IMG/VR virus record: IMGVR_UViG_3300033075_001437
Location: 32,001-96,000 of that record
Source: a virus
Lineage: Duplodnaviria > Caudoviricetes
Direction: 5' to 3' (one strand)
DNA length: 64,000 nt
Of the stretch, positions 38,461 through 58,221 are shown in pieces. A program made the position numbers and the translations under genes. How positions within the stretch are numbered: position 1 is the stretch's first letter; each line of letters opens with the position of its first letter. The notes beneath the pieces were generated by a model, which saw only the letters and a list, made by a program, of their open reading frames with translations, ran no database searches and had not been told where the DNA came from.

Positions 38461-38462
38461 AC

Positions 38463-38783: not shown

Positions 38784-39039
38784 TATAATACACCATTATA
38801 TATTGCACAATTAACGAAACATCAAAATTATCATCTATATCAAAACAAACATCAAAATTGTCACTTGGCAATATAAAAGATTTTGACAAATATATCGCTT
38901 GGCGATCAATTTTAAGAACACATTTGAATCTTTGATAATAATAGATAGAAACACGATATTTTAAAAAATGTCTAATTATACTAATACCATCAAAGCTCAC
39001 AATTTCTTGCACTACAGTATCTAATATATCGTCGATCAT
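38773..39039 (-). CDS. small paralog-family protein
   Basis: MIDDILDTVV...FDIDDNFDVSLIV. Confidence 0.55.
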   Translation of the reverse strand: MIDDILDTVVQEIVSFDGISIIRHFLKYRVSIYYYQRFKCVLKIDRQAIYLSKSFILPSDNFDVCFDIDDNFDVSLIVQYIMVYYNEV

Positions 39040-40026: not shown

Positions 40027-40651
40027 GTTTTCTCATGTTACAATGTTTTATCATTTCATCTTTATCATTATGATCAGGATTTTGTTCTAACCATAGTGAT
40101 AAATACGCATCATACCAATTCCAAATTTCAACACCATCACGCCAAATACTTTTGCAAGAAAAAACTGATGCATAATTTGTCTCTTCAGGTAAATCAGTTT
40201 TAGTTCTAAATGAAAATTCGCTACAATTATCAGAATACAATTCTGTAATAGCATATCTTTTCCATTTAGTTAAATATTGAATCCCACTAAATGTATATGT
40301 TTTAGTCTCATCACAAAGCCATTCATCGCCGACTTCGATCAACGATTTCAATCTATAATTAATCAAATCGCTAAAATCAGCTTCAATTAATGCTTCTTGC
40401 CAAAGTTTATACTCTTCATTTATGTCGTCTTCTGACAATTGCAACCTACTAGCAGCATCTCTTATTTTACCAATAAATTCCGAATCTCCTCTTTTTATAA
40501 TATTACAAAAATCTTTAAAATCAATACAACGCCAAAATGTGTCAATATACACTTTGCGGGCGATTACAAAATTCAATCCAATACTATTGGCTAATTCACG
40601 CCATTGCTGATTTTTTATAATTGAAATTTTAATATATGGTTCAGTTTTCAT
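39995..40651 (-). CDS. hypothetical protein
   Basis: 218-aa ORF. Confidence 0.55.
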   Translation of the reverse strand: MKTEPYIKISIIKNQQWRELANSIGLNFVIARKVYIDTFWRCIDFKDFCNIIKRGDSEFIGKIRDAASRLQLSEDDINEEYKLWQEALIEADFSDLINYRLKSLIEVGDEWLCDETKTYTFSGIQYLTKWKRYAITELYSDNCSEFSFRTKTDLPEETNYASVFSCKSIWRDGVEIWNWYDAYLSLWLEQNPDHNDKDEMIKHCNMRKHELYVQSTNS

Positions 40652-40674
40652 GTAAATCTGTTACCAAAGCATAT

Positions 40675-40899
40675 TTAAAAATAAACTAAACAATCATATA
40701 TCATTTTATCTACATCAAGATCGCAATAATTAATTTTCAATACACCATTGTCATTTAAAATAGATAAATAATCATCGCGTATTTGTATTATACAAATATT
40801 AAACCCACATTTATATACATATATATTTAATCCTGAAATTATGATTTCACATTTATTTAATTTAAATCCAAACGATATAATATTTATTAAATCTTCCAT
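40675..40899 (-). CDS. small paralog-family protein
   Basis: MEDLINII...INYCDLDVDKMI. Confidence 0.6.
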   Translation of the reverse strand: MEDLINIISFGFKLNKCEIIISGLNIYVYKCGFNICIIQIRDDYLSILNDNGVLKINYCDLDVDKMIYDCLVYF

Positions 40900-41132
40900 G
40901 TCATTACATCTAATATCAAACTGTCAATGTCAAGATCACTATAATTAATATAAGTAGTATGACTCTTTGTAGTCAATGCTAAAAAATTATTGTGTACACT
41001 TATAACTCCAACGGAATAAAAATCATCTTTAAACACATATATATCATTTCCGCCAGATACACGCACTTTGCAGCCATTTCTATCTAATCTTGATAAAATT
41101 AAATCAGTTATTTCATCGACAATTGGTATCAT
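40887..41132 (-). CDS. small paralog-family protein
   Basis: DEITDLILSRL...INYSDLDIDSLI. Confidence 0.6.
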   Translation of the reverse strand: MIPIVDEITDLILSRLDRNGCKVRVSGGNDIYVFKDDFYSVGVISVHNNFLALTTKSHTTYINYSDLDIDSLILDVMTWKI

Positions 41133-41581
41133 TGAAAAACCTTATGATGAAAACTCATAGCGTATGCGGCAGAATCTGTATCTTCATAAGTATTATATAA
41201 AATAGAAAAAGCCTTGAAACCAACAGCTTTAAAAAATAATTGTGCGCCTAAGTTAGTTTCTACAACATTTAAATATATATTATCACGGTTTCCAGTTAAT
41301 AATTTATCAACTAATTTTTTAATTAGCTTAGCGCCAAACCCACGCCTTCTAAAATCAGGATGTATAGCCAAATTTTTTAAATAATATTCAGACTTACGTA
41401 ATTTATAAACCATATAACCTATGACAATATTATCACACTCGATAACCATACCAAGTGTTTTACGTTGTCTTAAAAAATAAATGAAATCCTGTTCTGTCCA
41501 TGGATTTTCAAAACTCGCTTTTTCTATTTTTAAGACATCTGGTAGATCAGAACGAGCTATCCATCTAATTGTCATAGCCAC
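41129..41581 (-). CDS. rimI: RimI-like GNAT N-acetyltransferase
   Basis: IRW..DL..VL.IE..SF..PW, NLAIHPDFRRRGFG, V.ETNLGAQLFF..GF. Confidence 0.85.
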   Translation of the reverse strand: MAMTIRWIARSDLPDVLKIEKASFENPWTEQDFIYFLRQRKTLGMVIECDNIVIGYMVYKLRKSEYYLKNLAIHPDFRRRGFGAKLIKKLVDKLLTGNRDNIYLNVVETNLGAQLFFKAVGFKAFSILYNTYEDTDSAAYAMSFHHKVFQ

Positions 41582-41829
41582 CGCCTGACGACAAAATCGA
41601 CAAATCTATCGATATCAAACTCACAATAATCTAAACGTTCAGGATAATTTGGCCATGTATTATTGCTATTTATATAAATATAATACCCGTCTTTGCTAAA
41701 TAAAACAGTACAAACATGTTTATTTTTAACATGGATAGCACAACTTGAATGAAGAGATTTAGCTGATATGTTCGGCATCGAACTGAGAGTTTGAGCCACA
41801 ATATCAGCTAAATCTATTGTTATCCCCAT
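41572..41829 (-). CDS. small paralog-family protein
   Basis: IDLADIVAQTL...LDYCEFDIDRFV. Confidence 0.55.
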   Translation of the reverse strand: MGITIDLADIVAQTLSSMPNISAKSLHSSCAIHVKNKHVCTVLFSKDGYYIYINSNNTWPNYPERLDYCEFDIDRFVDFVVRRWL

Positions 41830-41841
41830 TTTATATAATCG

Positions 41842-41871
41842 TTAACGGTAAATTATAACTGTTACCGTTAA
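41842..41871 (-). terminator. inverted repeat, terminator-like
   Basis: ttaacggtaa / ttaccgttaa 10-bp stem in an intergenic gap. Confidence 0.45.
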
Positions 41872-41889
41872 TGACCGCATATCCCAGTA

Positions 41890-42303
41890 TCATTTGTCAA
41901 GTTCAGCAAGTTGCTTTTCTAATTCTTCCATAGACGCCGCTGTTAATTGTTGATCCTTTTTAGCAGCAATCGCATCCAACAGCTTCTTTCGCTCTGCTGC
42001 ACGAACATTGCGTGCTACAACAGCTCGATTCTCTTCTTGTTTTGTCTTAATAACATCTTTGACAATATCAAGAGCAACAGTCAATGCTGTTTTCAAAGGA
42101 TCTGATGAAGTGTCTTCAACAAACGACTCAACATCCATGCTTTTCAATTTCTCATTGATAGCGACCGCCACAGAATTAAGATCAAACCCAGATTGATTTT
42201 TAAGTTGCAATTGAAACAATTGCTCAACAGTAAGATCGCCTCTTGTAGACGGAAACCGCAAACCATTCTTAGCCGCAAACTTATAAATATCACTCACAAC
42301 CAT
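41890..42303 (-). CDS. conserved phage protein, partner of the adjacent 660-aa gene
   Basis: LRFPSTRGDLTVEQLFQL...coiled coil; GGAG upstream. Confidence 0.7.
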   Translation of the reverse strand: MVVSDIYKFAAKNGLRFPSTRGDLTVEQLFQLQLKNQSGFDLNSVAVAINEKLKSMDVESFVEDTSSDPLKTALTVALDIVKDVIKTKQEENRAVVARNVRAAERKKLLDAIAAKKDQQLTAASMEELEKQLAELDK

Positions 42304-42337
42304 TCTCCTTAAAAATAAAACACGCTAAACAACATTC

Positions 42338-44320
42338 TTAAAACAATAACGTATATGGCCGCTTGCCATCAACCACAACAGTAACAGAATCTCCACGTGC
42401 CGCTGTAAACCCAACACCAGATATCTGATCATCAACCGATTGGCATTTCGTTTTAGCGCCCAATACCTCAAAAACTTTACGATGTTTTTCGAGATCATGA
42501 CGTAAAAATTCGTTGTAAACGCCACGAACTGAATTTGGATTTTTGCAGCCCTTAAGAGCAAAAATCAAGTGCTTAGCACCAACTTTATTATCACCCCAAT
42601 AATTTGGACTATTCATTATAGCAGTGACGGGTATCAATGTCTCAGTCTTTACCCCCCATTTTTCCTGCGACACTGAACCGCCTATAAGCTTAGTCTTAAT
42701 ATTGGTTAGCATTTTATTCTTTATAACCAATTCAAAACACTCAACATCACTTGAAACTGCTTTGTTATAACTATATTGGTGAATTTGCCCGCCAAACTCA
42801 ACCTCAATTGCAAACCCAACATCAATCGTCTCACGACGATTAAACTGATTAACCCAAATAGCATATGTGCCATCGATAAGTTTATTAAATGCTAAATTCT
42901 CTACCGGATTTCGACATTGCCCTGAACCAGCGTTCATATCAACATCAAGAATGCCAAATTTATCGCCATAATATATATGTTTAGAATCCGGCGTTTCAGC
43001 ATGTAAATCTAAATCGTCGAAATTAAACCAACTTAGACTGACACGTAGTAAAGCATTGATGTTACCACCAGCAGCTTTAACACGCTCCTTCACGCTATCA
43101 GTAACATCACCGTCATAACTCCAAGCGAAATTATTATCCCAACGAAATAATCTCTCTGGACCATCAGCTCCAGTAAGGCAAATAAAGTTAGATTGATGCT
43201 TATTCTCGACAAACACTTCCACAGACTTGGCTGTAGGAAGAACAGAAGCTACAAAATCGTCGGCTGATAATTTTGTAGCTTTAGATAGATTAAATGGCTG
43301 ACGATTTATACTATCTTCAAGCAAAGCAGCAACGCCATCCTTCATTTTACCTCTTTCATTATTATCGACAAATAAGACATCATTTACCGATACATCTGAT
43401 AGTTTAGCATATCGACGAGCAATTGCACCATGTAGCCCAAGATCAGTTAATGTTTGAACCGCCGATTCTACCATTTTTTGTGTAATAATTGCTGTTGGCC
43501 GTTTATAATTCATAGGCGCAACTTTAGATTCAAAAGACTTTACAGCAACTTCAATGTCTTTACCTTCTGCCATATCAGTCAATAAAGTACCGATAACAGT
43601 GTTGCGAAATCTGGCAGATCGGTCATTAAGATTCTCCCATATAAACAAATTCTTATTAACAGCTTGCTTAAATCTTTGCAGTAATGATACAAATCCTTGT
43701 ACTGCTGGTTTATGCTCTTCACCACGATATAATCCATTTGAATTTATAAGATCAAGCACTGCTTCAAGGTCTGCTTCTTTAATTTCAGTAAGACCGCGAT
43801 TGCATACTTGAAAGATAGCGTCTTGCTCGCTGCGTTTGGTTTCTGGATCAGCTGTACGATGCTTAGCTGCAACTACTCCATAGAAGTGATCGTATCGCGC
43901 ATTTGTCTTTGAATCATAGTTATACTCTTGGCCAAATTTTAATTCTTTAGTGCGAAACACAGTTTTAATAGTTGCAGATTGAACTAAAGCGTCCAAAGCA
44001 TCAGCGACTTGTTTATAAGGATAAGGCAAATTTAAACCGCCCCAAACAGTAATAATCTTACCGTCTTTGATGTTTACAAGATGGCCTAACCGACGAATAA
44101 ATTGTTTGCAGCATTGACAATCGTGTGTAGTGCGTGTTCTAAATATAGGATTAGTATCTTCTGGAAACGAAGCTATATATTTATCATAGATTGTGTCACT
44201 AACGTCTGTTACATATAGCTCATTTTTTGACATTTCATTAAAACGAGCATGAACTGCCGCAGAAAATTGCGAAAAATCAGTGCACACAATAGGCTTTTGT
44301 TGAGTCGCAGCCATAATCAT
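42338..44320 (-). CDS. conserved phage protein with YfaP/DUF2135-like domain
   Basis: HDCQCCKQFI, YRGEEH, NYKRP, SLSWFNFDDLDLH..LDVDMNAG..PVEN. Confidence 0.7.
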   Translation of the reverse strand: MIMAATQQKPIVCTDFSQFSAAVHARFNEMSKNELYVTDVSDTIYDKYIASFPEDTNPIFRTRTTHDCQCCKQFIRRLGHLVNIKDGKIITVWGGLNLPYPYKQVADALDALVQSATIKTVFRTKELKFGQEYNYDSKTNARYDHFYGVVAAKHRTADPETKRSEQDAIFQVCNRGLTEIKEADLEAVLDLINSNGLYRGEEHKPAVQGFVSLLQRFKQAVNKNLFIWENLNDRSARFRNTVIGTLLTDMAEGKDIEVAVKSFESKVAPMNYKRPTAIITQKMVESAVQTLTDLGLHGAIARRYAKLSDVSVNDVLFVDNNERGKMKDGVAALLEDSINRQPFNLSKATKLSADDFVASVLPTAKSVEVFVENKHQSNFICLTGADGPERLFRWDNNFAWSYDGDVTDSVKERVKAAGGNINALLRVSLSWFNFDDLDLHAETPDSKHIYYGDKFGILDVDMNAGSGQCRNPVENLAFNKLIDGTYAIWVNQFNRRETIDVGFAIEVEFGGQIHQYSYNKAVSSDVECFELVIKNKMLTNIKTKLIGGSVSQEKWGVKTETLIPVTAIMNSPNYWGDNKVGAKHLIFALKGCKNPNSVRGVYNEFLRHDLEKHRKVFEVLGAKTKCQSVDDQISGVGFTAARGDSVTVVVDGKRPYTLLF

Positions 44321-44397
44321 TCTCCTTCGAATTCAGTTAATAATAGACAATTTCGTATCAATAACAAATACGTCGCACGATTTCAAAAAGTTTATCT

Positions 44398-46047
44398 TTA
44401 CGACCACTTTTTAATATATCTAAAGTTGCCAGCATCCCAAATTCTTCTATAGCCATTGTTAAACATATTGACCGATTCAGTCTCGTTTTGGTCAAAAACA
44501 TCTAAAACATTTGGCAATTTATGCTTTTGAAACTTATGCCTAGAATAAACCTTTTGTTTTTTAAAATACATATAATTAGGACTAGTAATACCATCTAAAA
44601 CAAACCCAACCTTTTCATATGAATTTCCGTTAAAGTACCTTCTATTCGCATATGAAATCATAGATTTAGGCTTATATTTATCAACAAAATAATCCATCAA
44701 TTTAGATAATCCGCCAACAACAACAGTGTTTAAACGATTGCAATACCTCATCATCTCATATTGATACTTGTTATGCTTAGATATTGTTAATAACGCCACT
44801 AGCTCACCATCATAAGACAAACCAAATGAATATGGCGCACTTCTATATCCTTGTATATGATTGTTATTTAAAAAGCTTACTACCTGTGTAACAGATGGTG
44901 TTATAATATAGCATTTTCTAGCATAAATCCTGTTGGCTTTCCTAAAACAACTTGAAAGTATAGATTTAACAATGTCTCTTTTATCGTTCCATTCATGCTC
45001 GAAAATCTGTAACAATCTGATATTGTTGTTATGACATAAATCATGTTTATAAGAACACATGTTGATTTGATCTAATGTTTCTTTTTCACAATATGAATGC
45101 CAATAATCACCATGACACTCTATGCCGACATTTCCTGCTAAAAAATCTATTTCCTTAACTAAAGACCTATCATACAATTTAATTTCATCATCAGCTATAG
45201 TTAAAAGAAAATCATAAACAGATTTTTCAAATAAATTCATTTTACATTTTTTACATTTAGCCCCAACTATGTGAGATTTTGGGCAAACTGTAAAAACGCC
45301 ATGTTCTGGACAAATAACATCAACCGTATGCTCGCATCCAGTGTATGATTCTTTAATATAAGAATACTTACCACCATATATTTCATTTGCTTTTAAAACA
45401 AAATTGTCAAACTTATAAGCACTTTCCGCCGCACATTTTGAACATCCTTTACCAGCTAAATGCGCATATCTAGATTGTATAAATTCGCCGTGTTTGTCGC
45501 ATATTACTTTAACAATCGTTTTTTTGTGATTTATCGAATTACTATACCCACCAATGTCAACATATTGATATTTATTATCGTGTATAGTATTAGCTTGTTT
45601 TACGAAATCGTCAAAACCTGTTTTTAAATTATTGTTTCTAGCAATTACAGCACATTTTGGGCAGCCAGACTTATTAGAGATATGATTAGCTGGTATCGTG
45701 TTAAATTCACCATGCTCTTTGCATATAACGATCACTTTTTTACGCATACCATTATATATTGTCTTGTCATAATTATATTTATAACTATGCACGATATTAG
45801 CTTCGTTTATAAAATCAGATAGTGTTTTTAACTGTTCCCTCGACCTGCAAGCATTCTTTTCACAACCGCATTTATTGCAACCTTGTTTTCTTACGCCTGC
45901 GTGTAATGATGGCAATTGCCAAAACGAACCATGTTTTAGGCAAATTATTTCTACTTTTGTTTTACTATCTATATAATTCGACTTGCTATAGTCATATTTA
46001 TCGTTATGTTTTAATATTGCTTTCTTTATAAACTCTTGTGTGTTCAT
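44398..46047 (-). mobile_element. free-standing homing endonuclease (Hef-like: Zn repeats + Vsr-type nuclease + GNAT-like C-terminus)
   Basis: Four FI.KA..H..KY.Y....Y..V.IIC..HG.F..H....GC.KC repeats, EIDF..GIECHGDYWHS, IYARK..VVGGLSKL..SYANRR; overlaps the end of DnaE piece 4. Confidence 0.8.
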
Positions 46048-46540
46048 AGTCTTTTATTTCTATTATTTCGTCATGTTCTGTTAAATCACAAACTTGAACA
46101 TATCCTCTTGGTGTCAACACTCGATGTTCTTCTGTCAGATACAGTTGTTGTCCATTTTCTAAAGTTATTTCTATCAGTTCTTTTTCGCCTGAACAAATAA
46201 CATTATATTCTGATGTGTAATCTATTTTGTTATCATTGTTTAGATATTGGATTTTATGCTTATTAGGATCTAAATGTTGTATTTCAATATAACCATTATC
46301 TGTCATTATCTTTGAATCGAACCGACAGCATTTAGCAGTATTTGTATCGAATTGAAATATACCATCTGTCTTTTGTTGATTCGCTAGATTTAATGCGTGT
46401 TTGTCATTTAACGATATGTAATGCTTATTTCCGTCATTATCAATAAAATAACCTGCTCTATCTAATTCTGGGTCTATATCGTCCCATCCTGATATGTCAT
46501 TTATTTCTTCTATGCTTTCAATATCTTCGAAGTTTATCAT
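46004..46540 (-). CDS. dnaE: DnaE piece 4: 70-aa N-terminal segment plus split-intein N-half (108 aa)
   Basis: LND..AL..TDGIFQFDTNTAK|CCRFDSKIMT..LTEEHRVLTPRGYVQVCDL (intein blocks A and B). Confidence 0.9.
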   Translation of the reverse strand: MINFEDIESIEEINDISGWDDIDPELDRAGYFIDNDGNKHYISLNDKHALNLANQQKTDGIFQFDTNTAKCCRFDSKIMTDNGYIEIQHLDPNKHKIQYLNNDNKIDYTSEYNVICSGEKELIEITLENGQQLYLTEEHRVLTPRGYVQVCDLTEHDEIIEIKDYEHTRVYKESNIKT

Positions 46541-46674
46541 TGTTTTATAATACGTTTTAAAATTTAGTATATAACATTGTTGTTACGTATAATGGCAGAT
46601 GTTTTTGCTGTTTCCTATCTCGGTATACGTTTAATAAAAAGATGAAGATTAACAGCGACAGTCTTTTTAACAAC

Positions 46675-46709
46675 ACAGGGAGCTACAAAATCAAATTGTA
46701 GTTCCCTGT
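46675..46709. terminator. hairpin, terminator-like, downstream of the SPFH gene
   Basis: acagggagctacaa / ttgtagttccctgt 14-bp stem with one G-U. Confidence 0.55.
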
Positions 46710-46725
46710 TTATTTTCAATACTTA

Positions 46726-48048
46726 TTATTTCTTATTCTCAGGCCGTGTAATAGTAGGGACAGGAACTTGAAGCAAAAAATCAGGCGAGCTATTCCCATT
46801 GCCACCCATATAATAACTTGGAAAATGGCCATCCCATGTTTTAAGTTTATCTTTCTCCAACTCTAATCGTTTGAGAAATGTATAAAGCTCAACATCTAAT
46901 TTAGCTTTTTCAAGTTCATAAGCTTTAGCGTCGGCTACAAGCTTAATCATTTCAGCTTCTGTCTCTTTCTCCAGCTTAATAGCTTGAGCTTTGCCATCAG
47001 CTTCAAGTCTAACTTTCTTATTAACTTCTTCTTGTGCAGCAGTTTCTGCCCTAGCGATTGCTACTTTCTGATCTGCATTAAAAACTTCAACTAATTTATC
47101 CATGATTGTCTTATCTTTATATACAAACCCTCCAGAAATACCTAGATTTGTGATAGTTATGCCACGGCCTTCAAAAAATTCTGTAACTTCATCAACAACT
47201 TTCTTCAAGTGTGGTGTAGCCGCAGTTCTTAATTTCTCCATTTTTTGATCAGTCACTTCTAAACCAAACGTAGTCTGAATTTTAGCTCTGATTTCAGTAT
47301 CCATAGCCATCTTTAAAGAACCAGCCGGATAATTATGTAAAAATTTGACAGCAGCGTCTCTATTAGCAATGCGAGCAGTGCATGTCCAACCAGTTGAAAA
47401 CTCAACTTGGTCAGCAGTCATAACCCAAATAGCCTCATTTTTATTACTAGTTCCAGAATTCTCATCAGCTGTCCATTCGCGAGTTACAGGTGATGTGTCA
47501 ACACGTATAAGCAAAGCAGCATCGCGCCATTCTCCGCGCCAAAACACAGTTTCATAATCAAGCGGAACCCATTGTTGCGGGATTTTAACTTGCTGAGTAT
47601 AGACAAGATTGGCTTTAAGGTATTCCTCAGAATTAGTTGAAGACTGATCTAAAGGATTAGCACCAGCCTTTAATGGCAATAAAAAAGCTTCCTCTGTGTT
47701 GCTGATAATCTCCAATTTAACAGGTTCAAAAGGTTTATAACACCCACTCCCAAATAGTATAAATAACACTGGAGTAAACCTACATGATTTAACGCATAAA
47801 TTGAAAAAACTCTTTATACTGTCAAAAAACAAAACAAAACCTAAAACAATCACACAACTAGGAACGGCCCATCTAGTTAAATCTATCATTTGTTTGTCAT
47901 GCTGAATAGAACTATCGCCGCTAGGATTATCTAACTGATGCACTTGGGTCTTCAATTGTTGCTCTACTATAACATCATCAGCCCATTTAACATATGTCAT
48001 AGATGCGATAATAACCAACATAAATACAACTACTCTAATCGCGAACAT
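46726..48048 (-). CDS. SPFH/band-7-like membrane protein
   Basis: N-terminal TMs plus GSGC lipobox-like site, GITITNLG, AE-rich coiled coil, WDGHFP tail; GGAG upstream. Confidence 0.7.
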   Translation of the reverse strand: MFAIRVVVFMLVIIASMTYVKWADDVIVEQQLKTQVHQLDNPSGDSSIQHDKQMIDLTRWAVPSCVIVLGFVLFFDSIKSFFNLCVKSCRFTPVLFILFGSGCYKPFEPVKLEIISNTEEAFLLPLKAGANPLDQSSTNSEEYLKANLVYTQQVKIPQQWVPLDYETVFWRGEWRDAALLIRVDTSPVTREWTADENSGTSNKNEAIWVMTADQVEFSTGWTCTARIANRDAAVKFLHNYPAGSLKMAMDTEIRAKIQTTFGLEVTDQKMEKLRTAATPHLKKVVDEVTEFFEGRGITITNLGISGGFVYKDKTIMDKLVEVFNADQKVAIARAETAAQEEVNKKVRLEADGKAQAIKLEKETEAEMIKLVADAKAYELEKAKLDVELYTFLKRLELEKDKLKTWDGHFPSYYMGGNGNSSPDFLLQVPVPTITRPENKK

Positions 48049-48095
48049 AAAACTCTCCTAGGTTAAACATACAAAAGATTTAAAATACAATAAGC

Positions 48096-49335
48096 TTACA
48101 AATCGAAACTATTTTTGTATCCTTCACGAAAATGGCTAACAGAGAAAATAATCGGTTCTGCTTCAGGCCATCTTTTGCCAAGAACATCACACGCATAATA
48201 ATAGGCCCACTGAGGGCTTCGTAGAAGCACAGGTTCACCTTCAGGCCATCTTTTGCCAAGAACATCACACGCATAAAGATAAGTATATTCAGGACTAGTT
48301 AATATTTTAGGCTCCGCCGCTGGCCAACCATTTTTAACTTCGGAAGGTTTAAAAGTATATTTAATATAATTAAGTATAGCCTTATTATCCTGCAAAATAA
48401 CACTCTCGCCTCTAGGCCATCTGTGGTGTAAACAATATTGTGCATACATAGAAGCCCAAGATGGTTTCTTCAACATAATATGCTCAGCTTCACGCCATCT
48501 CCCTCTAACAACATCAACAGCATACTTAAAAGCAGTATGATCGTCTTGTAAAATAAACGGTTCAGCTTCTGGCCAACGATCCTTTATAAATTTTTTAGCA
48601 TAATGATACAAATCGATAGGATTAGAATCTAAACCCGGTTTAGGAACTAAATCTATGATCGTTTTATTATCAATAGCACGATCATTTACATCCATAACTT
48701 GGTCATAATCTGGCGTAAATTGCACAAATGGTTTACCATCTTTATAAATAACACCGATCCAACCATATTGTTCGATGTAATATTCTGCTTGACAGTCTGG
48801 ATAGCTCCTCCTGGTACACCACTTAGTCCCCTCACCGATATCCTTAAGAGACTCAACATCTGTTACCTTATAAGTCTTATAATTGTTAACAGTATCTTGT
48901 ACAAATCCGTCCCAACTCCATTCTGCGTTAGCATCCCAATTTGGATCTAAATAATTGTTTACAACATTATTATTTGTATCAGTTTGATTAATCAGCTCTA
49001 CGCCAGGCAATTTAGATGGATTTAAATTATTCCCACCCTGCCTCTTGCTAATGCTCCCAACAACTGGTTCTAAAACTGTTTCAAGTTCATGCAATGAATT
49101 GTACTTTAATATGTCTTTTATTGCTAGGTTGCGTTGATATTTCTGAAAATTATTCAGTGTTTCTTTTATTCTATAATTGTCTTCTGGAAGTCTAATATCA
49201 TTTTTATTTAACAATTTTAATATAAATAGTTTGTATTTTCTTCCTGTTGGGTCTGCATCGGTTAATAATTTATTTAACTCATCTATTGATATATTGAGTT
49301 TTTCTGCTGTTTGTTGTAGTATCTGGTTATTTTCT
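48096..49335 (-). CDS. repeat protein with GTKWCT domain
   Basis: ADPTG.KY, GTKWCT, about six 26-aa Y.YA..V...RWPEAEP.I repeats; ATG of MKLTLITE at 49335. Confidence 0.7.
48161..48276. repeat. exact 38-nt direct repeat, 78-nt period
   Basis: cttcaggccatcttttgccaagaacatcacacgcataa at 48161-48198 and 48239-48276. Confidence 0.9.
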
Positions 49336-49358
49336 GTTATTAATGTTAATTTCATGTT

Positions 49359-49610
49359 TTATATTTTACTGCCACTATAAAGTATCCTGCATATTATGTT
49401 GCCGACAAAAACGTCAGTATCTACAAATTCATCATAATTAGTAACTATAGGTATACAATCGCCTATAAAGCTCTTAATCTTATCATTATGGAAAATAATA
49501 TCTGCATATATGCCGCCATCTATAGTTATAAATCTACGACCACGTATGAAGGTTATATTGTTTATATTGTCAAGTCTGTTAGCAATAATATCTATCAAAT
49601 CATCGATCAT
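49359..49610 (-). CDS. small paralog-family protein
   Basis: MIDDLIDIIANRL...TNYDEFVDTDVFV. Confidence 0.55.
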   Translation of the reverse strand: MIDDLIDIIANRLDNINNITFIRGRRFITIDGGIYADIIFHNDKIKSFIGDCIPIVTNYDEFVDTDVFVGNIICRILYSGSKI

Positions 49611-49867
49611 AAAGCACAAAATAAAGCACAAAATAAATCATCTTTTAATTCGTGATTGGCCCTTGATATGGTTCGTTCGACAAATTTTCAGCAAACTCCT
49701 CAGCAGCGTCACGACTGTCGAACCACCGACACCATCCAGTTTTGGTATTGGTGGTTAACGAATGACGAACAATCCAGTCAGAACCTGATCCATATACAAT
49801 AACTTCAGATACCCCACAAAAAACCGTTGTATAATCATAACGATAAACATATATCATATTAATTGCC

Positions 49868-50386
49868 CTATTTTGAATTTTCAAACATTTGTTTTTTGAA
49901 ATCTTCAAGTTCCTTGTTTGATAGCGGACAATTTGGGCAAACCGCAACGTCCTTTGATGGTTTATCGCTAATGAATTTTGCCCCACAACCCAAGCATTGG
50001 ATACGAATGCCAGCAGCTTTCTCTAACCTTTCAAGCCTAGATAATATATCAAAAACTGGCTCGCCATAACTGCCAATTCCAATTTGTTCTGCTTCTATTA
50101 AATATGCTGGTATTTTACCATCTTTGAAATCATTTAAAAACCAACATAAATCGTGTAAAAAACCTGTACTTATTGAAGATAGAATAATATTATAGTTTTC
50201 ATCTCGTATTTTGCCACAATCGCCATCATATACTCCACTTATTTCGTTTTCTGGAATATTTTTAAATCGAATAAAAAACTGGCGATAACACGGCATAAGA
50301 CCACTGAGACTGCTATTGGTGTTTTTGACGTTTGTGGTTTCTATATTCATTCGTTTAACATACCGATTCTGATTTTCATATGTCAA
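49868..50386 (-). CDS. hypothetical protein with C-terminal Zn ribbon
   Basis: CLGCG...CPNC. Confidence 0.55.
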   Translation of the reverse strand: MTYENQNRYVKRMNIETTNVKNTNSSLSGLMPCYRQFFIRFKNIPENEISGVYDGDCGKIRDENYNIILSSISTGFLHDLCWFLNDFKDGKIPAYLIEAEQIGIGSYGEPVFDILSRLERLEKAAGIRIQCLGCGAKFISDKPSKDVAVCPNCPLSNKELEDFKKQMFENSK

Positions 50387-50436
50387 ATCCTTGGAAAACC
50401 TTACACTCTCAAAACTAAGAATTTAGTGGCTCCAAT

Positions 50437-50988
50437 TCATTGCCCTATCTTTTTCAAAACTTCCTTAGGTTTTACCACTTCTCTTAGTGTATATTGCCGA
50501 GCATAATAAGGAATCTGGGAAGCTATAATCCGAGAATACTCAGATCGAGAAACTGAATAAATCCATTCTTTATCTGAAAGAGCATTCGCTTCTTCAATCT
50601 CTTGGCGAAAACGCTGCACAAAACCATGAGATTCATAACCACGATGAATACGATCTAGGTTCTCAGGATCATTCTTATAAATTTCAACCACCCAGGCGGG
50701 ACACTTATGCGAGCGAATTAAGTGTGTACCAAGTAGAACATTCTCCCCTAAAATTGTAATAGATTTTCTGGCTTCATCATGTTCTTCACTGGTAAAATCT
50801 CCGGCTTCTAATTGCCACTGTTCTTTTGGGATTCTTTCATTAGCAAAGGGTATCAAAACTCTTTCCTGAGAGAATAATGGTATCACTAATAAGTTAAAAA
50901 GCATAATAAAAAAGAGATAAAACTGTATGTTACAACGATTCATTCGCATTAACTTTCTCCCTACAGTGCAATTCATTAAAAATATCAA
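50437..50988 (-). CDS. hypothetical protein with signal-peptide-like N-terminus
   Basis: FYLFFIMLFNLLVIPLFSQE; start uncertain. Confidence 0.5.
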   Translation of the reverse strand: MIFLMNCTVGRKLMRMNRCNIQFYLFFIMLFNLLVIPLFSQERVLIPFANERIPKEQWQLEAGDFTSEEHDEARKSITILGENVLLGTHLIRSHKCPAWVVEIYKNDPENLDRIHRGYESHGFVQRFRQEIEEANALSDKEWIYSVSRSEYSRIIASQIPYYARQYTLREVVKPKEVLKKIGQ

Positions 50989-52832
50989 TTAGACTTGTAT
51001 ACAAATCTAAAATTACCACAATCAAACAATAACCTAAAACCATTTAACAACATTATTTCTCTTTCAGACAAATCTTTATCGTAAAACAATATAGATTTTT
51101 TATCAAAAAGGCTTTTTAATTTATGCTTTTGAAATGTTTGCCTTGAATAAATCTTATTATTCTTAACATAACAATACCCTGGTCTAGTCACACCATCAAA
51201 TTTCATACCAAGTTTGTTATAAACACCGCCAGTCGCATACCTAGCATCGGCATATGTTATAACCTCATTCGGCTTAATCTTATTAATAAATTCTTTAAAC
51301 ATTTTAGACGCACCACCAACTATATTATAGCCAATTTTGGTTGCTAATCTGTCAATTTTAAACTTACCATTTCTACCTATAAACGACATAACTGAAAATA
51401 CATCATGTCCATCAGTTAAAGCGACACCAAAATTGCACGAACCAGATCCTTTTAAATGGTTCTCACTTAAAAATTTCCTGATAACTTTAGAGTCTGCAGT
51501 AATGACCTTCAATTTCCTAGCATAAATCGTTTCACTTAACATTAAAGCATTTTTGATCATACTTTTGACAATTTCGAATTTATTTTTAATTTCATAATCT
51601 GTAAACTGAAACAGTCTTAAATTATTATTCTCGCATAATTTAAGCTTATTAATATGTCTATTAGAATCAATATCTGATAAATTATCGTATGAATGCCAAT
51701 ATAAGCCATTTACCTCTATACCAATTTTATGTTTATCGATATATGTGTCTATCTCATATGGGTTAATAATGCTCCTGTCGTTTACAATATAATCTATATT
51801 TAATTGGTCTAACAAATTATTTATAGCAACATGAGCATTTGAAACATTGCATGATTTGCAACCGTGGCCTAAAAAATGATATCTTGGTATCTGATAGAAT
51901 TCACCATGCGATGGGCAGATTATTTTAACTTTAGTTTCAACATTTTCATAATCTACAAACGAATAATCGTATTTATCGCCGTGAATAGTTTTAGATTTTA
52001 GTATAAATTCTTCAAAGCTCAACTTATAATTATCTTTATATCTATCTATGGCACACTCCTTACATGCTTTTCCTTTTGAAATGTTGCACCACCTACCTGA
52101 TTTCAAACCATGTTTCTTACATTCATATGTTAACACACCTTTTTCATACTTTAAATATTTAAAACTATCGCCAAACAATATTTCAAATTGTTTTTTTCTA
52201 GAGATTTCTTCTACATTTCTTCTATCGTTTAATGTGCGTTCTTTAATTATAGGTTTAAATTTTTCATTTTTACAACCTTGACATCCAACAAGGCCGCGTA
52301 GATGCCTGCGAAAATGAACAGAAAATTTACCATGTTTTGAACAAACAACATCAATATTACTATCCCTATTGTTGTAGACGGCATTGCTATAATTATAATT
52401 TGGATACATGTTATTTAAAGTTGATTGAAAATGCTCTGGTATTTTACCACCATTACATATAGGACATTGCCATTTATTTAATATAAGATTAGCTGTAGAT
52501 ACAAATTTGCCATGTTTAGAACATACAAAAGTAAATTTAAGATTCTCAAGAAAGCTTTTTGGTTCAATTAAATCATGTTCTGGATACAGCCGTTTAAATT
52601 CTTTTTTAAAACTATCAAATTTATTAGCCATATCAACTTTAATAGTTTGGATACTACATAGTTTACATTCGCTTTTATTCTTAACATGAGATTGTGGCGT
52701 TTGCCAAAACGAACCATGTTTTGGACAAATTATTTCTACTTTTGAACAATTGTTAACATATGTGACTTTAGAATAATCATATTTATCGCCATGTATTAGC
52801 TTGGCATTTACTATAAATTGCTCTGTATTCAT
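50985..52832 (-). mobile_element. free-standing homing endonuclease (Hef-like), paralog of 44398..46047
   Basis: IHGDKYDYS..IICPKHG.F repeats, EIDTY..IGIEVNGLYWHS, IYARK..IVGGASKM..TYADAR; directly downstream of DnaE piece 3. Confidence 0.8.
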
Positions 52833-52868
52833 ACACTTATTTTTGCACTTATAATCGATATTTCGGGT

Positions 52869-54020
52869 CTAGAACTTCTTCAAAACATCTTGAACATCAA
52901 CTTCTTGTCCATTGTATAATATCTTATCGCCATGATTAAGTAAAAGTATCTCCCCATTCTTTAATTTGACAGCATACTTTTTAACAATTGGACCAAACGA
53001 TATACCTCTATTTTCTTTTATCAATCTGCAAGCACTGTATATATATTCTAATGTCTTCAAACCCAATATATCGAGCTTGCAATAGCCAAGCTTGCTTAAG
53101 TGTGTGTTGCGCCCTTCTGGCCACATTGTTGACCATGGATTTTTATTGCTACTTCTGGTTAAAGGAACATTGCCGAACAGTGGTTTATTAGCTATAACTA
53201 TAGCCCCAGCATGAACACCAGCGTTCCTAACCTTGCCGATCATTTTAATAGCATATTCAAATAAATCTGGATGATTATCCTTGAATGCTTGCAATTGCTG
53301 ATACTCAAATAAAGCCCTTCCTATCGTTATATTGTCATATTCATCAGATCCACATCTAGGGCATTTTAATTCAGCATGTACAAATTTGCATTCTTTCTCT
53401 TCTTCACTATCAACTTCTTTATACTTCCCTTTGCAAGTTGACTGCCCAAACTCTCTTAAATCATCAACATCTTCAGGTAAAGTTGTTGTTAACGCATGAA
53501 TTTCAGATTGATGTACCTTACCAATCGCTCTAGCAACATCCAATAATGCTGATTTGAATTTATATGTCTGCCAAGTTCCGACATTGCAAACATTGCCGTA
53601 CTCATCATTAATATCAATATTAAATCTTGTAGCCGCATATTTTTTAATATCATCACGTGCTTCTGGTAAACAATCTATATCTATGTCAGGCATGTCCATA
53701 TCTTTAGTAAAATCAGATGGTAAGTTGCCATATTGATCTAAAAATTTATGAACCTGCGTATATGATGCATTATTCAACAATGGTTCTGTTCTTGTAGCTA
53801 TTGGGTCTATATCAACCATACCAAGAAGCCACGGCAGAACCAACATACTTGGATTACTAGAAAACTTCCTGTTTTCTATATATAAATTAATCCAATATGT
53901 TTCATATCCTTGTTTTTCTATTTCTGAGAATTCGAATTTAAGTCTATCTATATAAACTTGATCTTTATTTTTACTATTTAAATTATTTAAAGCTATTTCT
54001 TTTAATTCTTCCCAAATCAT
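52869..54020 (-). CDS. dnaE: DnaE piece 3: catalytic palm/thumb
   Basis: MPDIDIDC, SALLDVAR, GVHAGAIVI, KLDILGLKTL; Zn-finger insertion (C..CPRC). Confidence 0.92.
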   Translation of the reverse strand: MIWEELKEIALNNLNSKNKDQVYIDRLKFEFSEIEKQGYETYWINLYIENRKFSSNPSMLVLPWLLGMVDIDPIATRTEPLLNNASYTQVHKFLDQYGNLPSDFTKDMDMPDIDIDCLPEARDDIKKYAATRFNIDINDEYGNVCNVGTWQTYKFKSALLDVARAIGKVHQSEIHALTTTLPEDVDDLREFGQSTCKGKYKEVDSEEEKECKFVHAELKCPRCGSDEYDNITIGRALFEYQQLQAFKDNHPDLFEYAIKMIGKVRNAGVHAGAIVIANKPLFGNVPLTRSSNKNPWSTMWPEGRNTHLSKLGYCKLDILGLKTLEYIYSACRLIKENRGISFGPIVKKYAVKLKNGEILLLNHGDKILYNGQEVDVQDVLKKF

Positions 54021-54430
54021 TTGCCGCCTGCACCTGGATGTATAGCGTTCATATGGTTAGTCAGCCCAAATTGTTTTTTAAACTTTTTATTACATATTGG
54101 GCAAGTAATGTCTTTAGTTGATTCTTCTATTAGCGACTGTGCCGGTTCTTGATCCAATACTGGCGCAGTTTGAATTTGCGGCACTTGCGGCGTAATTTTA
54201 TCTTGTTTTACCGGTTTACTTTGATGATTTATATAATTTTCTTTCAATTTCCAAGGCTGCATAGCGTATGTAAAGCCATCTTTCTCATATGTATCAGCTT
54301 GATAAACAAGAGCTTTTTTAGATTTGGCAATATCTGTTGCGACATCATTCTTCAAAACTGTAGCTAAAACCTTAGCAGGTGGGTGTACGACAATATACGC
54401 TACTTTATTCATTACAAGTACCACTGTCAA
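54017..54430 (-). CDS. C2H2 zinc-finger protein
   Basis: CPICNKKFKKQFGLTNHMNAIH. Confidence 0.7.
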   Translation of the reverse strand: MTVVLVMNKVAYIVVHPPAKVLATVLKNDVATDIAKSKKALVYQADTYEKDGFTYAMQPWKLKENYINHQSKPVKQDKITPQVPQIQTAPVLDQEPAQSLIEESTKDITCPICNKKFKKQFGLTNHMNAIHPGAGGK

Positions 54431-54839
54431 AAGTGTCTTTGCCTAGTATGACTTTATCGCAAATACTTTCTAAGAACGTTTGTTTATATTGGTTAATATA
54501 AACATGATCAAACTTCATAAGTAATAAACGAATATTCCGTAATAACAACTTATTCTTATTAGATTCATACTTCCAAGTATTACCATCTTTAATAAAAAAA
54601 TTTATTACATCAGCGTTGCAATATAAATACAAAGTATTACAATAAACATTATTATAATTATATGAGGTCAAAGCAGATAGAATCGATTGCAATTTTACAA
54701 ATTCAGCAGTTTTATTATATAGCTGATAAGCATAATATCTATGATAATTGCAATATACAGATTTAATAGCTACAGTTGATACAGTGTTATCTACCTTTTC
54801 ATAACAATATAATTTACAATTTATTGCCATGGACGTCAC
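54405..54839 (-). CDS. RNase HI-like fold, degenerate
   Basis: NKTAEF..L..AL and YCNADVINF..WKY..LL..IR.LL.KFDHVYI follow the RNase HI pattern without the catalytic Asp residues. Confidence 0.4.
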   Translation of the reverse strand: MTSMAINCKLYCYEKVDNTVSTVAIKSVYCNYHRYYAYQLYNKTAEFVKLQSILSALTSYNYNNVYCNTLYLYCNADVINFFIKDGNTWKYESNKNKLLLRNIRLLLMKFDHVYINQYKQTFLESICDKVILGKDTFDSGTCNE

Positions 54840-55236
54840 ATATTGTAGGATATTCTGATTTTGTAGCTGCCGCTAATGCGTTTAATAATTTAGATATTAT
54901 TCTTAATAAATTATATTTCGCCTGTATCTTATCTATTTTCCTTAATTTAATTATAGCTATCAATAATTCGTCATTTAAATTCATGATTTCTTCGGTAAGA
55001 CCTTTCGCCGCATTAATAGATGCTACATGTTTCGACACATGATTTGCAACTGATTCGATAATTGCATATGATAAGCCTATTAATTCTCTCGTCGGATCAT
55101 TATTAATAATCAATGAATCTATAATATCTATAGATTTAATAAGATATGCGGCCAATTCCGAAGTTGGGCCATTATATATTAGCAAGTATATTCTAATTGA
55201 ATGTTTAAATTCTGAATTTGCATCTATTTTATTCAT
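54814..55236 (-). CDS. hypothetical helical protein
   Basis: 140-aa ORF coupled to DnaE piece 2. Confidence 0.55.
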   Translation of the reverse strand: MNKIDANSEFKHSIRIYLLIYNGPTSELAAYLIKSIDIIDSLIINNDPTRELIGLSYAIIESVANHVSKHVASINAAKGLTEEIMNLNDELLIAIIKLRKIDKIQAKYNLLRIISKLLNALAAATKSEYPTICDVHGNKL

Positions 55237-55556
55237 TATTTTTCCGGCATTGTCACTTTTAAAAGGTATCCGCCACGGCTGCTTGACAAGAATCTGTCAA
55301 AACTCAAATCCCATTTCATTGGGTCATAATTTGAAATTCCTAATAAATAACATACTAAACTTCCGCCAGCCGAATTAGAACTGAACACTCCATTTAATTG
55401 ATATGTGTTAGTGGCGCTAACTTGTAAATCATATACTTTACCGGTGTATTTCTTCTTTGTTATCTTGTTTATTCTTATTCTCTTTATAGTATTTTTTGTA
55501 ACCAATTTCTGCAATTCTTTTATGTTTTTGATCTGTGAAGGTAATAGTTGATTCAT
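55236..55556 (-). CDS. dnaE: DnaE piece 2: split-intein C-half plus 45-aa extein
   Basis: KKYTGKVYDLQV..YQLNGVFSSN|SAGGSLVCYLLGISNYDPMKWDLSFDRFL. Confidence 0.9.
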   Translation of the reverse strand: MNQLLPSQIKNIKELQKLVTKNTIKRIRINKITKKKYTGKVYDLQVSATNTYQLNGVFSSNSAGGSLVCYLLGISNYDPMKWDLSFDRFLSSSRGGYLLKVTMPEK

Positions 55557-55921
55557 TGAAAATAACCCTAATTTGCCGCCACATGTGACTTCCGCCTGTT
55601 CCTCTTAAAATACCTTCGGAAAGCAATCTCTCCGTTGTATATAATACATAATTATCAGCAACGCCAGTTTCTATGATATATCTTTCAGCGGCTGCCTGTT
55701 TTTCGCCAACTTTGTTTTGGTAAAATCCTTTTATTTCTATTATCGATTTAACATTTTTATCATCTATGACACAGAAATCTGGATGATAAAAATGTTTATC
55801 ATATGCTATACTAAAATCGCACCTTCTGATGGTTTTATAATTGTTTCTAACGTGCCAAATATATATGTTGAATATTTCCGCACTTATTGCAATTATATGT
55901 TATTTTGGTTTTTTTCGACAT
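55438..55921 (-). pseudogene. eroded PD-(D/E)XK (TnsA-N-like) homing endonuclease
   Basis: ATG at 55921 (MSKKTKITYNCNKCG..) stops at 55847; shifted frame 55899-55438 reads CDFSIAYDKHFYHPDFCVI..IIEIKGFY with no ATG upstream of these motifs. Confidence 0.75.
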
Positions 55922-57497
55922 TAGCGATTAAATCCGAGATACCACCGATGATTTCATCAGTATCTTTGATTTCATATGCTTTCAGTAAACATACAATATT
56001 ATCTCTTATGACATATAGCTTATGGTCAGAAGTTAATTCCAAAACGCATCCGTCAACTTCAATAACAAACAACTCTTCAGATACATCATAAATGAATTTA
56101 TTTTCAACTACTTGTTTATCACCGAATCCGTCAATTATCTCATCGCCTATAGATATGTCAGATATTTTTTGGCAACTGTTAACGGACACATTAACTAAAG
56201 CGTCTGGTGTAGTGCAGCCACGGGGGGCAAATGGGAAGCCCCTATTTTTGCCATAATCTATTAAATCTTTAGTTATTAAAAAATAACTAGCAAAACCTTT
56301 TTCAATAAATCTGCTTAATTCTAATTTAGCCTGATCTAAATAAGTTACCTCTTTGCCATCAACAACAAATTTCCTATCACACTTATCTAAACCAAGCTCC
56401 TTCAATCTATTCTTAACAATTGTTATAAGCTTCTTATCAGCATCTTCAATACTCGGTATCTTAGGCGATAAATCGAATTTAACATTGTCGCACTTGTCAG
56501 CTATTTCAATAGAGTTATCACATGCCTCATGAAACCTTCTATCATCTATACCATCAGAATATGTATTATTCTTGAATCTTGTCCATAATTCAGCACGTGT
56601 TTTAAAATATTGTTCATCGCTATTAACATGAAACAAATCTGGCGAATCAACAGTTGTTTCTTGATCTATTGCCATCATGATTTTTTGGATCATTGAATCT
56701 TCTCTTTTCATATAATGACAATCATTAGTTATAACTGGTTTAATTTTAAATTTATCAGCTATCATATTTAATATTTTAAAAACTCTGTCATCGCCATCAA
56801 CCCCAGGCATTTGAAGTTCAATATAATAATCATCGCCGAATATTTGTTTATATGATTTTATAATATTCACAGCGGAATTAAGACATTCACTGTCTGTGCG
56901 TTCCTTTAAAATATTGCCTTCTCTGTCCTTTATTTGCTTAGTTCTTAACTCGTGTGATACTGGGCCATTTAAACAACCAGATAAAACTATTAATCCTTCT
57001 TTATATTTAAACAATTTTTCAGTCCAAGACCTGTTATATTTTGCTCTACCCATTCCAAATAAACCATCTTTATAAGCTTCTGTAGTTAACTTTATGAGGT
57101 TTTCAACTCCTTGTCTGTTTTTACATAAGACAGTAAGATGTCTATTTCTAGTTATTTTAAAATAATCTTCAATATTTTGTTTTTTCCATTCTTCAGATCT
57201 CCATTTTATCCCTTTAGATTCTAACTCTTGTCTTATCGGCTCATGGTCATTCAGATAAATTTCGCTACCAGCGATATATTTAAGACCGCTTTTCTTGCAC
57301 TCAAAAAAACCATCAGGCACTGATGCCATGTGGCCATGTTCAGTTAGAGCCAATGCACGGTAGCCTCTTTTCTTGCTTTCAGAGGCATATTGCTGGACAT
57401 AAGCAACACCGTCTAACATTGAAGCAATACTGTGATTGTGTAAATGTATTATCTCTGAATCACCAACATAATCCTCGCAAGTATAAATCTTATTCAT
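55893..57497 (-). CDS. dnaE: DnaE piece 1: PHP domain + palm start + split-intein N-half (107 aa)
   Basis: HLHNHS..LDG, ALTEHG, GSE, SGCLNG, TNDCHY, GFASYFLI, PRG|CTTPDA..LTSDHKL. Confidence 0.93.
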   Translation of the reverse strand: MNKIYTCEDYVGDSEIIHLHNHSIASMLDGVAYVQQYASESKKRGYRALALTEHGHMASVPDGFFECKKSGLKYIAGSEIYLNDHEPIRQELESKGIKWRSEEWKKQNIEDYFKITRNRHLTVLCKNRQGVENLIKLTTEAYKDGLFGMGRAKYNRSWTEKLFKYKEGLIVLSGCLNGPVSHELRTKQIKDREGNILKERTDSECLNSAVNIIKSYKQIFGDDYYIELQMPGVDGDDRVFKILNMIADKFKIKPVITNDCHYMKREDSMIQKIMMAIDQETTVDSPDLFHVNSDEQYFKTRAELWTRFKNNTYSDGIDDRRFHEACDNSIEIADKCDNVKFDLSPKIPSIEDADKKLITIVKNRLKELGLDKCDRKFVVDGKEVTYLDQAKLELSRFIEKGFASYFLITKDLIDYGKNRGFPFAPRGCTTPDALVNVSVNSCQKISDISIGDEIIDGFGDKQVVENKFIYDVSEELFVIEVDGCVLELTSDHKLYVIRDNIVCLLKAYEIKDTDEIIGGISDLIANVEKNQNNI

Positions 57498-58221
57498 GAT
57501 AACATTCAAATCATTAGGATCATTAGGTAGACTAGGAAATCAAATTTTCCAATACGCTATGATCAAAAATTTAGCTACAACAAATAAATATGAATACGGA
57601 ATACCAAAAAATTGTGATCTAAGGAATTGTTTTAAAATAGATTGTAAAGAAAGCGATAATATTCATACAGATTATAAATATGAAGAAGAATTCAAAAATT
57701 TCTCGACATACGACAAAAACATATTCAATATCAAAGACAATACTGACATTAGCGGATACTTTCAATCATATAAATATATAGAAAGTGATTTTAAATTAGA
57801 ATTTAAACAAGATTATTTTTTTCAATATAACAAAGATTCCGTTGGTGTTCACATTAGAAGAACTGATTATGTCGATAATAAGTTTAATAAAGAACAACCA
57901 ATAGAATATTATAATAAAGCAATGGATTTATTCGGTAATAATTATAATTTTTATATAATATCAGATGATATAAACTGGTGCAAACAAAACTTTAAAGGCG
58001 ACAATATTTTATTTTCAAATAATATATCAAGCTATGAAGATTTATACTGTTACTCCAAATGCGACAATCAAATAATTTCAGCTAGCTCATTTAGTTGGTG
58101 GGGAGCATGGTTTAATGCTAAAGCAGATAAAACAATAATATATCCATATTATTGGCTACACGACAACTTCATGAATATGGTTAAAGACTTAATCCCACCA
58201 ACTTGGCTACCAATTAAATAA
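57496..58221 (+). CDS. alpha-1,2-fucosyltransferase (GT11)
   Basis: GRLGNQIFQYA, GYFQS, HIRRTDY, SDDINWCK, SSFSWWGAW. Confidence 0.9.
   Translation: MITFKSLGSLGRLGNQIFQYAMIKNLATTNKYEYGIPKNCDLRNCFKIDCKESDNIHTDYKYEEEFKNFSTYDKNIFNIKDNTDISGYFQSYKYIESDFKLEFKQDYFFQYNKDSVGVHIRRTDYVDNKFNKEQPIEYYNKAMDLFGNNYNFYIISDDINWCKQNFKGDNILFSNNISSYEDLYCYSKCDNQIISASSFSWWGAWFNAKADKTIIYPYYWLHDNFMNMVKDLIPPTWLPIK

Follow-up and report, generated by a model that had tools for sequence, protein, structure and literature searches.

Fractured genes that combine a split intein with a free-standing homing endonuclease were described by Dassa et al. (2009), among them three DnaE loci and gp41-1 (PMC2677866). Fractured genes without inteins are cited there as well: an SbcD-like locus with a 25-residue tail and a 9-residue head, the nrdA gene of Aeh1, interrupted by an HNH endonuclease, and gp43 of phage 25, interrupted by one of the GIY-YIG family. 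Here we analyze a 64,000-nucleotide stretch of a caudoviricete virus (the window; bases 32001-96000 of the 106.9-kb IMG/VR virus record IMGVR_UViG_3300033075_001437, estimated to be ~30% complete), in which the family-C polymerase DnaE is spread over five open reading frames (ORFs), P1 to P5, with all relevant genes on the minus strand. P3 ends in a 40-residue tail, P4 begins with a 17-residue head, and a homing endonuclease gene lies between them. We infer, with a probability of about 0.6, that a mobile element has fractured the core DnaE at this point, and that tail and head, derived from the Hint fold of inteins but devoid of its chemistry, would hold P3 to P4-P5 non-covalently and be needed to do so.

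As in the split-intein loci of Dassa et al., a phage replication enzyme is encoded in two halves, a free-standing Vsr-like endonuclease gene separates them, the break has intein-type flanks, and later stages show endonuclease loss and uncoupling of the halves. Unlike those loci, the window has flanks of ~37 and 17 Hint residues without a catalytic residue, no trans-splicing, and an insertion site in a variable loop and not in a conserved motif with a +1 nucleophile. Two enzyme ORFs with an endonuclease between them are present but a functional split intein at the break is not, and we therefore place the locus with the intein-less subclass of fractured genes. It shares with the cited members of that subclass an intein-less frame broken by an endonuclease, short extra peptides left behind, and an enzyme expected to work as non-covalent pieces; it differs in that its peptides are conserved across eight or more lineages, apparently traceable to a Hint half-domain, and charge-complementary. 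For the SbcD-like peptides, the available text (PMC2677866) proposes no such Hint origin or role, and no title or abstract among the papers listed in our literature search describes a natural dead or vestigial split intein used as a clasp. New here are peptides that trace to one Hint half, are found again in many lineages together with an endonuclease of their own, and have a polarity reversed relative to the active inteins resident in the same gene.

The P3 tail, the P4 head and the empty site

P3 (52869-54020, minus strand; 383 amino acids, aa) consists of a body and the tail. The body, residues 1-343 (52992..54020, minus), is the first piece of the DnaE core (palm/thumb), matching Pfam DNA_pol3_alpha (PF07733, E 4e-26) over residues 4-320, and aligns collinearly with residues 1-343 of unsplit relatives of ~907-921 aa. 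Because P3+P4+P5 form a single ORF of that length, beginning at the P3 start, in 12 such IMG/VR relatives (43-55% identical), the division between P2 and P3 is a family-wide two-gene arrangement and the break between P3 and P4 is secondary. Likeness of P3 to its relatives ends at residue 343/344, and the remaining 40 codons (52872-52991) are followed by a TAG stop, the tail with its stop occupying 52869..52991 (minus). P4 (46004-46540, minus) is a 70-aa extein followed by an N-terminal intein half (IntN). The first 17 residues of the extein form the acidic head (46490..46540, minus; net charge -6); its native part, residues 18-70 (46331..46489, minus), is the start of the DnaE fingers domain, kept in the unsplit relatives from GWDDIDP on, with a weak Pfam DNA_pol3_finger match at residues 40-70.

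Across ~55 relatives the usual junction is FG, four variable residues, and GWDDIDP. Both tail and head are missing from ~40 unsplit relatives, which have only the four-residue loop (FG..GWDDIDP). In the window, FG and GWDDIDP are separated by tail, a 6.3-kb insert, and head; P3 has gained exactly 40 residues beyond FG(P), and P4 its first 17. The break falls between the Pfam DNA_pol3_alpha and DNA_pol3_finger domains. A preliminary description of this stretch had already reported the 40-aa P3 tail beyond the DnaE sequence, with coordinates and sequences that we reproduce, and a P4 head without blocks F/G or a terminal Asn, which agrees with our finding of native DnaE from G18 on. It had also asked whether the segment is present in cis in unsplit homologs; it is lacking in most and present in one (P0002). 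P4 residues 18-41 were considered as degenerate blocks F/G of a C-terminal intein half (IntC) and ruled out, this stretch being native DnaE in unsplit relatives.

Catalytic elements are missing from both sides of the break. No Cys or Ser that could serve as the block-A nucleophile stands at the junction in any of eight tails, the tail following directly after FG(P), and the equivalent of IntN residues 1-49, the first half of the fold, is wholly absent. Block B, TxxH in an intact IntN, reads NHGD in the window and has E, T or G at the His position in the other tails; the lack of a block-A Cys and the NHGD replacement had both been noted before and are borne out. Blocks F/G, the terminal Asn and a +1 Cys/Ser/Thr are all absent, the 17-aa head ending in S and the +1 residue being the Gly of native GWDDIDP. 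Nor is there room for a complete Hint fold (about 125-150 aa): tail and head total 57 aa, the cis form has 60 aa, and the structural model described below covers intein residues ~40-115. With Cys1, TxxH, blocks F/G, Asn and half of the fold gone, splicing is therefore excluded.

Relation of tail and head to the Hint fold

We consider it very probable that tail and head are Hint-derived, from the split-intein family found at two other sites of the same gene. Our comparison set comprised 38 IntN sequences from the three true split-intein sites of this DnaE family (FDT..AK|CC, GHPGPMQ|C and YAFNK|C). A profile of the eight tails aligned to these sequences by hhalign with a score of 31.3 (P 2e-6), placing tail positions 3-39 on IntN 50-86, the block-B region; 200 column shuffles gave a mean of 9.3 (standard deviation 2.0, maximum 17.6), and none of the 200 reached the score. 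Pairwise tail-IntN alignments land on the same IntN positions as the profile alignment, and the ungapped hand alignment of tail to P4 IntN in the preliminary description, 9/31 identical on our recount, is recovered by hhalign at the block-B region. Only the FDT|CC and GHPG|C classes give the match (hhalign P ~1e-6 each). No match was obtained by hhalign to the YAFNK|C class (P 0.014) or to the IntN of P1, although the fold is common to them, and this class specificity argues against mere hairpin resemblance.

We modeled the cis insert of P0002, in which tail, short linker and head form a 60-aa in-frame insert (L026:6718-6924), using AlphaFold2 without templates and with tails only as alignment. 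The model (predicted local distance difference test score, pLDDT, 79) has five strands and a short helix, with the head part as strand 49-55. VIA-align of this model against 48,161 PDB chains placed inteins at ranks 1-9 (Z 5.3-3.9, ~55-59 aligned residues, root-mean-square deviation (rmsd) 2.7-3.8 Å), and the 50 matches listed include ~22 Hint entries and no Tudor, SH3 or Sm entry. Model residues 1-59 correspond to residues 40-104 of gp41-1, 57-128 of NrdJ-1 and 49-115 of a halophilic DnaE intein. As modeled, the insert matches the late IntN plus the first IntC strand of Hint. This region is the second C2-symmetric unit of Hint, which in gp41-1 and Npu DnaE has a charge zipper between the late IntN strand and the first IntC strand (10.1101/546465; PMC11766414). 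In Foldseek the rows of highest probability and lowest rmsd were likewise inteins (6bs8: probability 0.96, query template modeling score (TMq) 0.55, rmsd 1.8 Å), at E values that were all >=0.35 and not significant; a fold search of BFVD gave nothing significant, and its top-probability row (0.91, TMq 0.53) was an intein. Prediction of a complex between P3 337-383 and P4 1-40 (score 0.30, mark 0.34), run without controls, is evidence neither way.

The tail (first strand +4; homologous to seven other tails) is thus best described as a probable non-catalytic remnant of the block-B half of an IntN, and the head, with homologs in L027, L034 and L035 and in cis in P0002, as the likely counterpart of the first IntC strand. 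Like the true split inteins of this DnaE family, the element has a tail that aligns to IntN 50-86 of two classes and an endonuclease partner of the same family; unlike them, its tail and head are without IntN 1-49, TxxH, and blocks F and G, and its insertion site is different. The comparison with natural split-intein capture, as in Npu DnaE and gp41-1, is similar: the retained parts correspond to the second C2 unit (gp41-1 40-104) and have oppositely charged strands, but in those inteins the zipper starts folding of a complete catalytic Hint, whereas at P3/P4 it would be the end state. The preliminary description had proposed a former split intein that lost its chemistry and was kept as an association module. 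Its origin is supported here by profile comparison, the cis model and the absence of catalytic elements; that it was kept for association is a suggestion to which we return below. Absent from that description were the mobility of the element across multiple lineages, the survival of only ~37 IntN residues, and the restriction of the head to 17 residues rather than a longer IntC.

Spread of the element and the case for a clasp

A homologous tail ends seven other metagenomic P3-like proteins (383-404 aa). Seven of the eight tails are 40-45 aa long, and their pattern is shared though the enzyme bodies are only 43-55% identical; the five heads have a common alternating hydrophobic/acidic strand. 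Searched against 5.8 billion proteins, the tail profile found only known tails and a hairpin-repeat protein, P0216. A search with a profile spanning the whole of P0042 (404 positions, enzyme body included) had a single find, P0127, a 126-aa fragment. In this truncated relative of the P0031/P0032 clade the tail continues into a long acidic stretch, and the contig stops before the junction; P0127 may be a second cis or extended form.

In the window the tail is followed by a free-standing homing endonuclease of 615 aa (50985..52832, minus), whose gene begins 36 nt past the P3 stop and whose product has Pfam DUF723 repeats and a Vsr-like/EDxHD nuclease core. It matches the homing-endonuclease families phrog_559 (E 1e-110) and phrog_3339 (E 1e-73) and, over residues 337-426, the "mobile intron protein" of PDB 3r3p (E 0.0045), which we take to be the structure of I-Bth0305I. 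Judged by these matches, it belongs to the Vsr-like/EDxHD family (I-Bth0305I family). The first prediction of the Vsr-like family is that of Dassa et al. (PMC2677866), and I-Bth0305I is the subject of PMC3239194. The preliminary description had placed an endonuclease directly after P3, as at both true split inteins of the window; the first part holds, and an intact endonuclease follows the IntN at only one of the two, that of P4.

Relatives show the same element at different stages. An endonuclease of ~610 aa stands directly behind the tail in L029, L030, L031, L032, L034 and L036, and L034 has the order P3-tail / endonuclease / head-P4-P5 with the endonuclease as the sole intervening gene. 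In L035 (10471-10728) only the first ~40 and last ~15 endonuclease codons remain behind the tail, a large internal deletion that left tail and head in place; in L027 the head-bearing gene begins 24 nt past the tail; and in L026, which encodes P0002, tail and head are fused in frame. Tail and head thus persist after endonuclease decay or loss, and in cis. The series from empty site through tail-endonuclease-head, decayed endonuclease and lost endonuclease to cis fusion is the classic homing-element cycle of invasion, decay and loss. In the enzyme-body tree, tail-bearing genes are scattered among empty ones, tail-bearing P0031 being sister to tail-less P0032 with support of 97; a single clade of tail-bearing genes is rejected by the approximately unbiased (AU) test (p 3.7e-6), and at least seven changes are required. 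This presence/absence polymorphism is incongruent with the host-gene tree, and the sequence comparisons indicate that tail, endonuclease and head form a mobile element. Identity between L030 and L036 is uniform at 89-99% across tail, endonuclease and body, which gives no dating of the element. The window P3 itself sits on a very long branch in the enzyme-body tree (1.74 versus a median of 0.47); the window polymerase is evolving fast or is poorly sampled.

The charges of the two peptides are complementary. The first tail strand is positive (+3 to +6) in all eight tails, and heads range from -1 to -6, with four of the five at -3 or lower. The true inteins of the window are reversed, with IntN strands of -3 and -4 and first IntC strands of +5 and +7, so the contrast drawn earlier between an acidic P4 head (-6) and basic true IntCs is upheld. 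By analogy, this polarity corresponds to a compensated swap like the one through which gp41-1 and Npu DnaE are orthogonal; the IntC of gp41-1 is acidic, and charge-swapped variants with orthogonality are documented (10.1101/546465). Among relatives, the charge of the zipper strand in GHPG-class IntNs ranges from -4 to +4. Between the window and L033 (87% identical) the head differs by 6 synonymous and 0 non-synonymous substitutions, compared with 17 and 9 in the adjacent native extein, a pattern that points to purifying selection on the head. On balance, sequence comparison leads us to think that tail and head probably make a real contribution to P3/P4 association.

We envisage the following mechanism. 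An element with the tail encoded at one end, the head at the other and a Vsr-like EDxHD endonuclease gene in the middle would insert at the variable palm/fingers loop and split DnaE. The 40-aa tail and 17-aa head would derive from the second pseudo-symmetric Hint unit, late IntN plus first IntC strand, and no peptide bond would be made, since neither the first half of the fold nor any catalytic residue is left. Instead, the basic first tail strand and the acidic head strand would zip as an antiparallel beta pair, completing a small five-stranded domain through the same contact that starts natural split-intein assembly, and this clasp would hold P3 non-covalently against the trans-spliced P4-P5 chain. 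Opposite polarity to the two true split inteins in the same cell should prevent cross-pairing. At about even odds, the docking lobe of a split intein, freed from its catalytic lobe, spreads with its own endonuclease as a self-mobile non-covalent heterodimerization module; this would allow a replicative polymerase to function as separate pieces, with charges swapped to remain orthogonal to two active co-resident split inteins.

Several observations weigh against a Hint-derived clasp. Tail amino-acid change is 3-5 times that of the body within 90% clusters, and between L030 and L036 the tail has 0 synonymous and 4 non-synonymous differences against 57 and 5 in the body (Fisher p 1.7e-4). The native interface between palm and fingers might also be enough to hold the split polymerase together, as in other phage enzymes split by endonucleases (PMC2677866). 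These points would suit functionless element ends, coding flanks carried in with the endonuclease that supply a stop, a start and perhaps expression signals and that are Hint-derived but decaying, with P3 and P4 held together by the native palm/fingers interface; other phage genes split by endonucleases work without inteins, and the tail and head of the SbcD-like locus have no assigned function (PMC2677866). We nonetheless hold functionless ends to be a doubtful account, as tail length and strand pattern are kept across bodies only ~45-55% identical, tail and head outlast the endonuclease and persist in cis, charge polarity is uniform in all tails and strongly negative (-3 or lower) in four of five heads, and the head shows no non-synonymous change against six synonymous ones. 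The Hint origin has its own difficulties. Structural Z-scores are low (5.3 at most), no Foldseek E value is better than 0.35, and AlphaFold may have a bias in favor of learned folds; the tail profile found no intein among PDB sequences, where Tudor and Sm domains came top (best, the lamin-B receptor Tudor domain, E 0.0076 over 18 residues), and had no match in Pfam, to a Hint family or any other. The tail motif (a KDG hairpin, then GE.IET) is partly generic, and the tail profile is also matched by a secreted repeat protein (DUF6799), P0216, whose best single repeat scores 16 bits. For the head, sequence evidence of IntC descent is nil, since hhalign of tail plus head against joined IntN and IntC stops short of it. 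A small beta domain of a generic kind, Tudor/SH3-like or a hairpin repeat, arisen de novo or from another source and resembling IntN by convergence, would account for these results. We consider such an origin improbable given that the hhalign match is collinear over 34-37 columns and confined to two of four local IntN classes though all four have the same fold and hairpin style, that inteins rank 1-9 of 48,161 chains with no Tudor, SH3 or Sm entry among the 50 matches listed in a search independent of Foldseek, and that the element's endonuclease is of the same family as that of the true split inteins.

The break might instead be healed after all, by an unrecognized protein-splicing chemistry, an intron, translational bypass or read-through of the P3 TAG. 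In its favor, the P3 TAG and the endonuclease ATG share a frame with 12 sense codons between them (52833-52871), and read-through would give a P3-endonuclease fusion. The same in-frame relation is found in L032 and L034 but not in L029 and L030, where gene coordinates put the endonuclease in another frame, and it is probably due to chance. There is no Rfam match that would indicate a group I or group II intron within 36000-58000, the 6.3-kb insert has at least six ORFs, and TAG is not recoded, all three stops being in use and TAG ending 8 of 51 long ORFs. Together with the missing nucleophile, TxxH, blocks F/G and terminal Asn, the Gly at +1 and the loss of half of the fold, this makes a healed break highly implausible. 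Without splicing chemistry or an intron match, and with TAG an ordinary stop, P3 and P4 therefore stay separate.

The surrounding DnaE genes and the meaning of the locus

P1 (55893-57509, minus) encodes a PHP domain and the start of the alpha domain, followed by an IntN, and P2 (55236-55556, minus) an IntC followed by a short extein. Together (55236..57509) they constitute the separate PHP-N gene of a DnaE family with two genes, and a true split intein interrupts this PHP-N gene; a separate PHP gene also lies upstream in L026, L029, L034 and L035. In this phage family the PHP-N and core genes are separated by three small conserved ORFs, the last with a C2H2-like zinc finger (window 54017-55236; L026:4268-5716). 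Positions 9-98 of Pfam DNA_pol3_alpha, already covered by P1+P2, occur again at the start of P3, and P2/P3 is on that account a second, intein-free junction with a duplicated segment. The 336-nt gap between P1 IntN and P2 IntC lies inside a 153-codon stop-free frame (55438-55899, minus; start codon not required) with a possible PD-(D/E)xK-like motif (D..IIEIKG), read by eye from the sequence. This frame may be an eroded endonuclease of a family other than that of the two large ones.

The true split intein between P4 and P5 begins with Cys71 of P4 (46328-46330), and its IntN (46004..46330, minus), with a TEEH block B and its own stop, matches Pfam Intein_splicing at residues 81-162; it belongs to the class FDT..AK|CC, present in 10 relatives. 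P5 (36865..38460, minus) has an IntC at 38347-38460, followed by fingers, HhH and OB domains; the IntC is 38 aa long, ends in VVHN|S, and has a first-strand charge of +5. A paralogous homing endonuclease of 549 aa (44398..46047, minus) overlaps the end of the P4 IntN. Cargo ORFs of 183, 172, 113, 90, 419 and 440 aa (46726..50988, minus) widen the P3/P4 gap in the window phage only, and their sole product with a PHROG match is the 440-aa protein (phrog_200). Cargo genes stretch both secondary breaks, with ~7.5 kb between P4 IntN and P5 IntC (38461-46003) and ~4.4 kb beyond the endonuclease between P3 and P4 (46541-50984); in relatives only an endonuclease, or nothing, intervenes at these breaks. 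This DnaE family is unusually intein-rich, with three distinct split-intein sites (after FDT..AK, GHPGPM(A/Q) and YAFNK) among relatives P0002-P0055, L018 and L026. Large contiguous inteins also interrupt L018, the PHP domain of L026 and the L026 downstream piece.

Split inteins are usually viewed as all-or-nothing: they splice or are lost. The locus and its relatives point to a third fate, survival of the association half alone, which travels with an endonuclease. If this is true, the Hint capture unit folds on its own, and a decaying intein can be domesticated as a clasp instead of being lost. The element would also offer a natural test of the capture-and-collapse picture, by asking whether the second C2 unit of Hint folds and binds alone, and a dated series that runs from the empty site through invasion and the decay and loss of the endonuclease to fusion in cis. 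For engineering, a natural pair of 40 and 17 residues, charge-orthogonal to co-resident inteins, would be a compact heterodimerization tag with several diverged natural variants. For the biology of these phages, it would mean that five ORFs yield a replicative Pol III alpha of three chains, put together by two chemistries.

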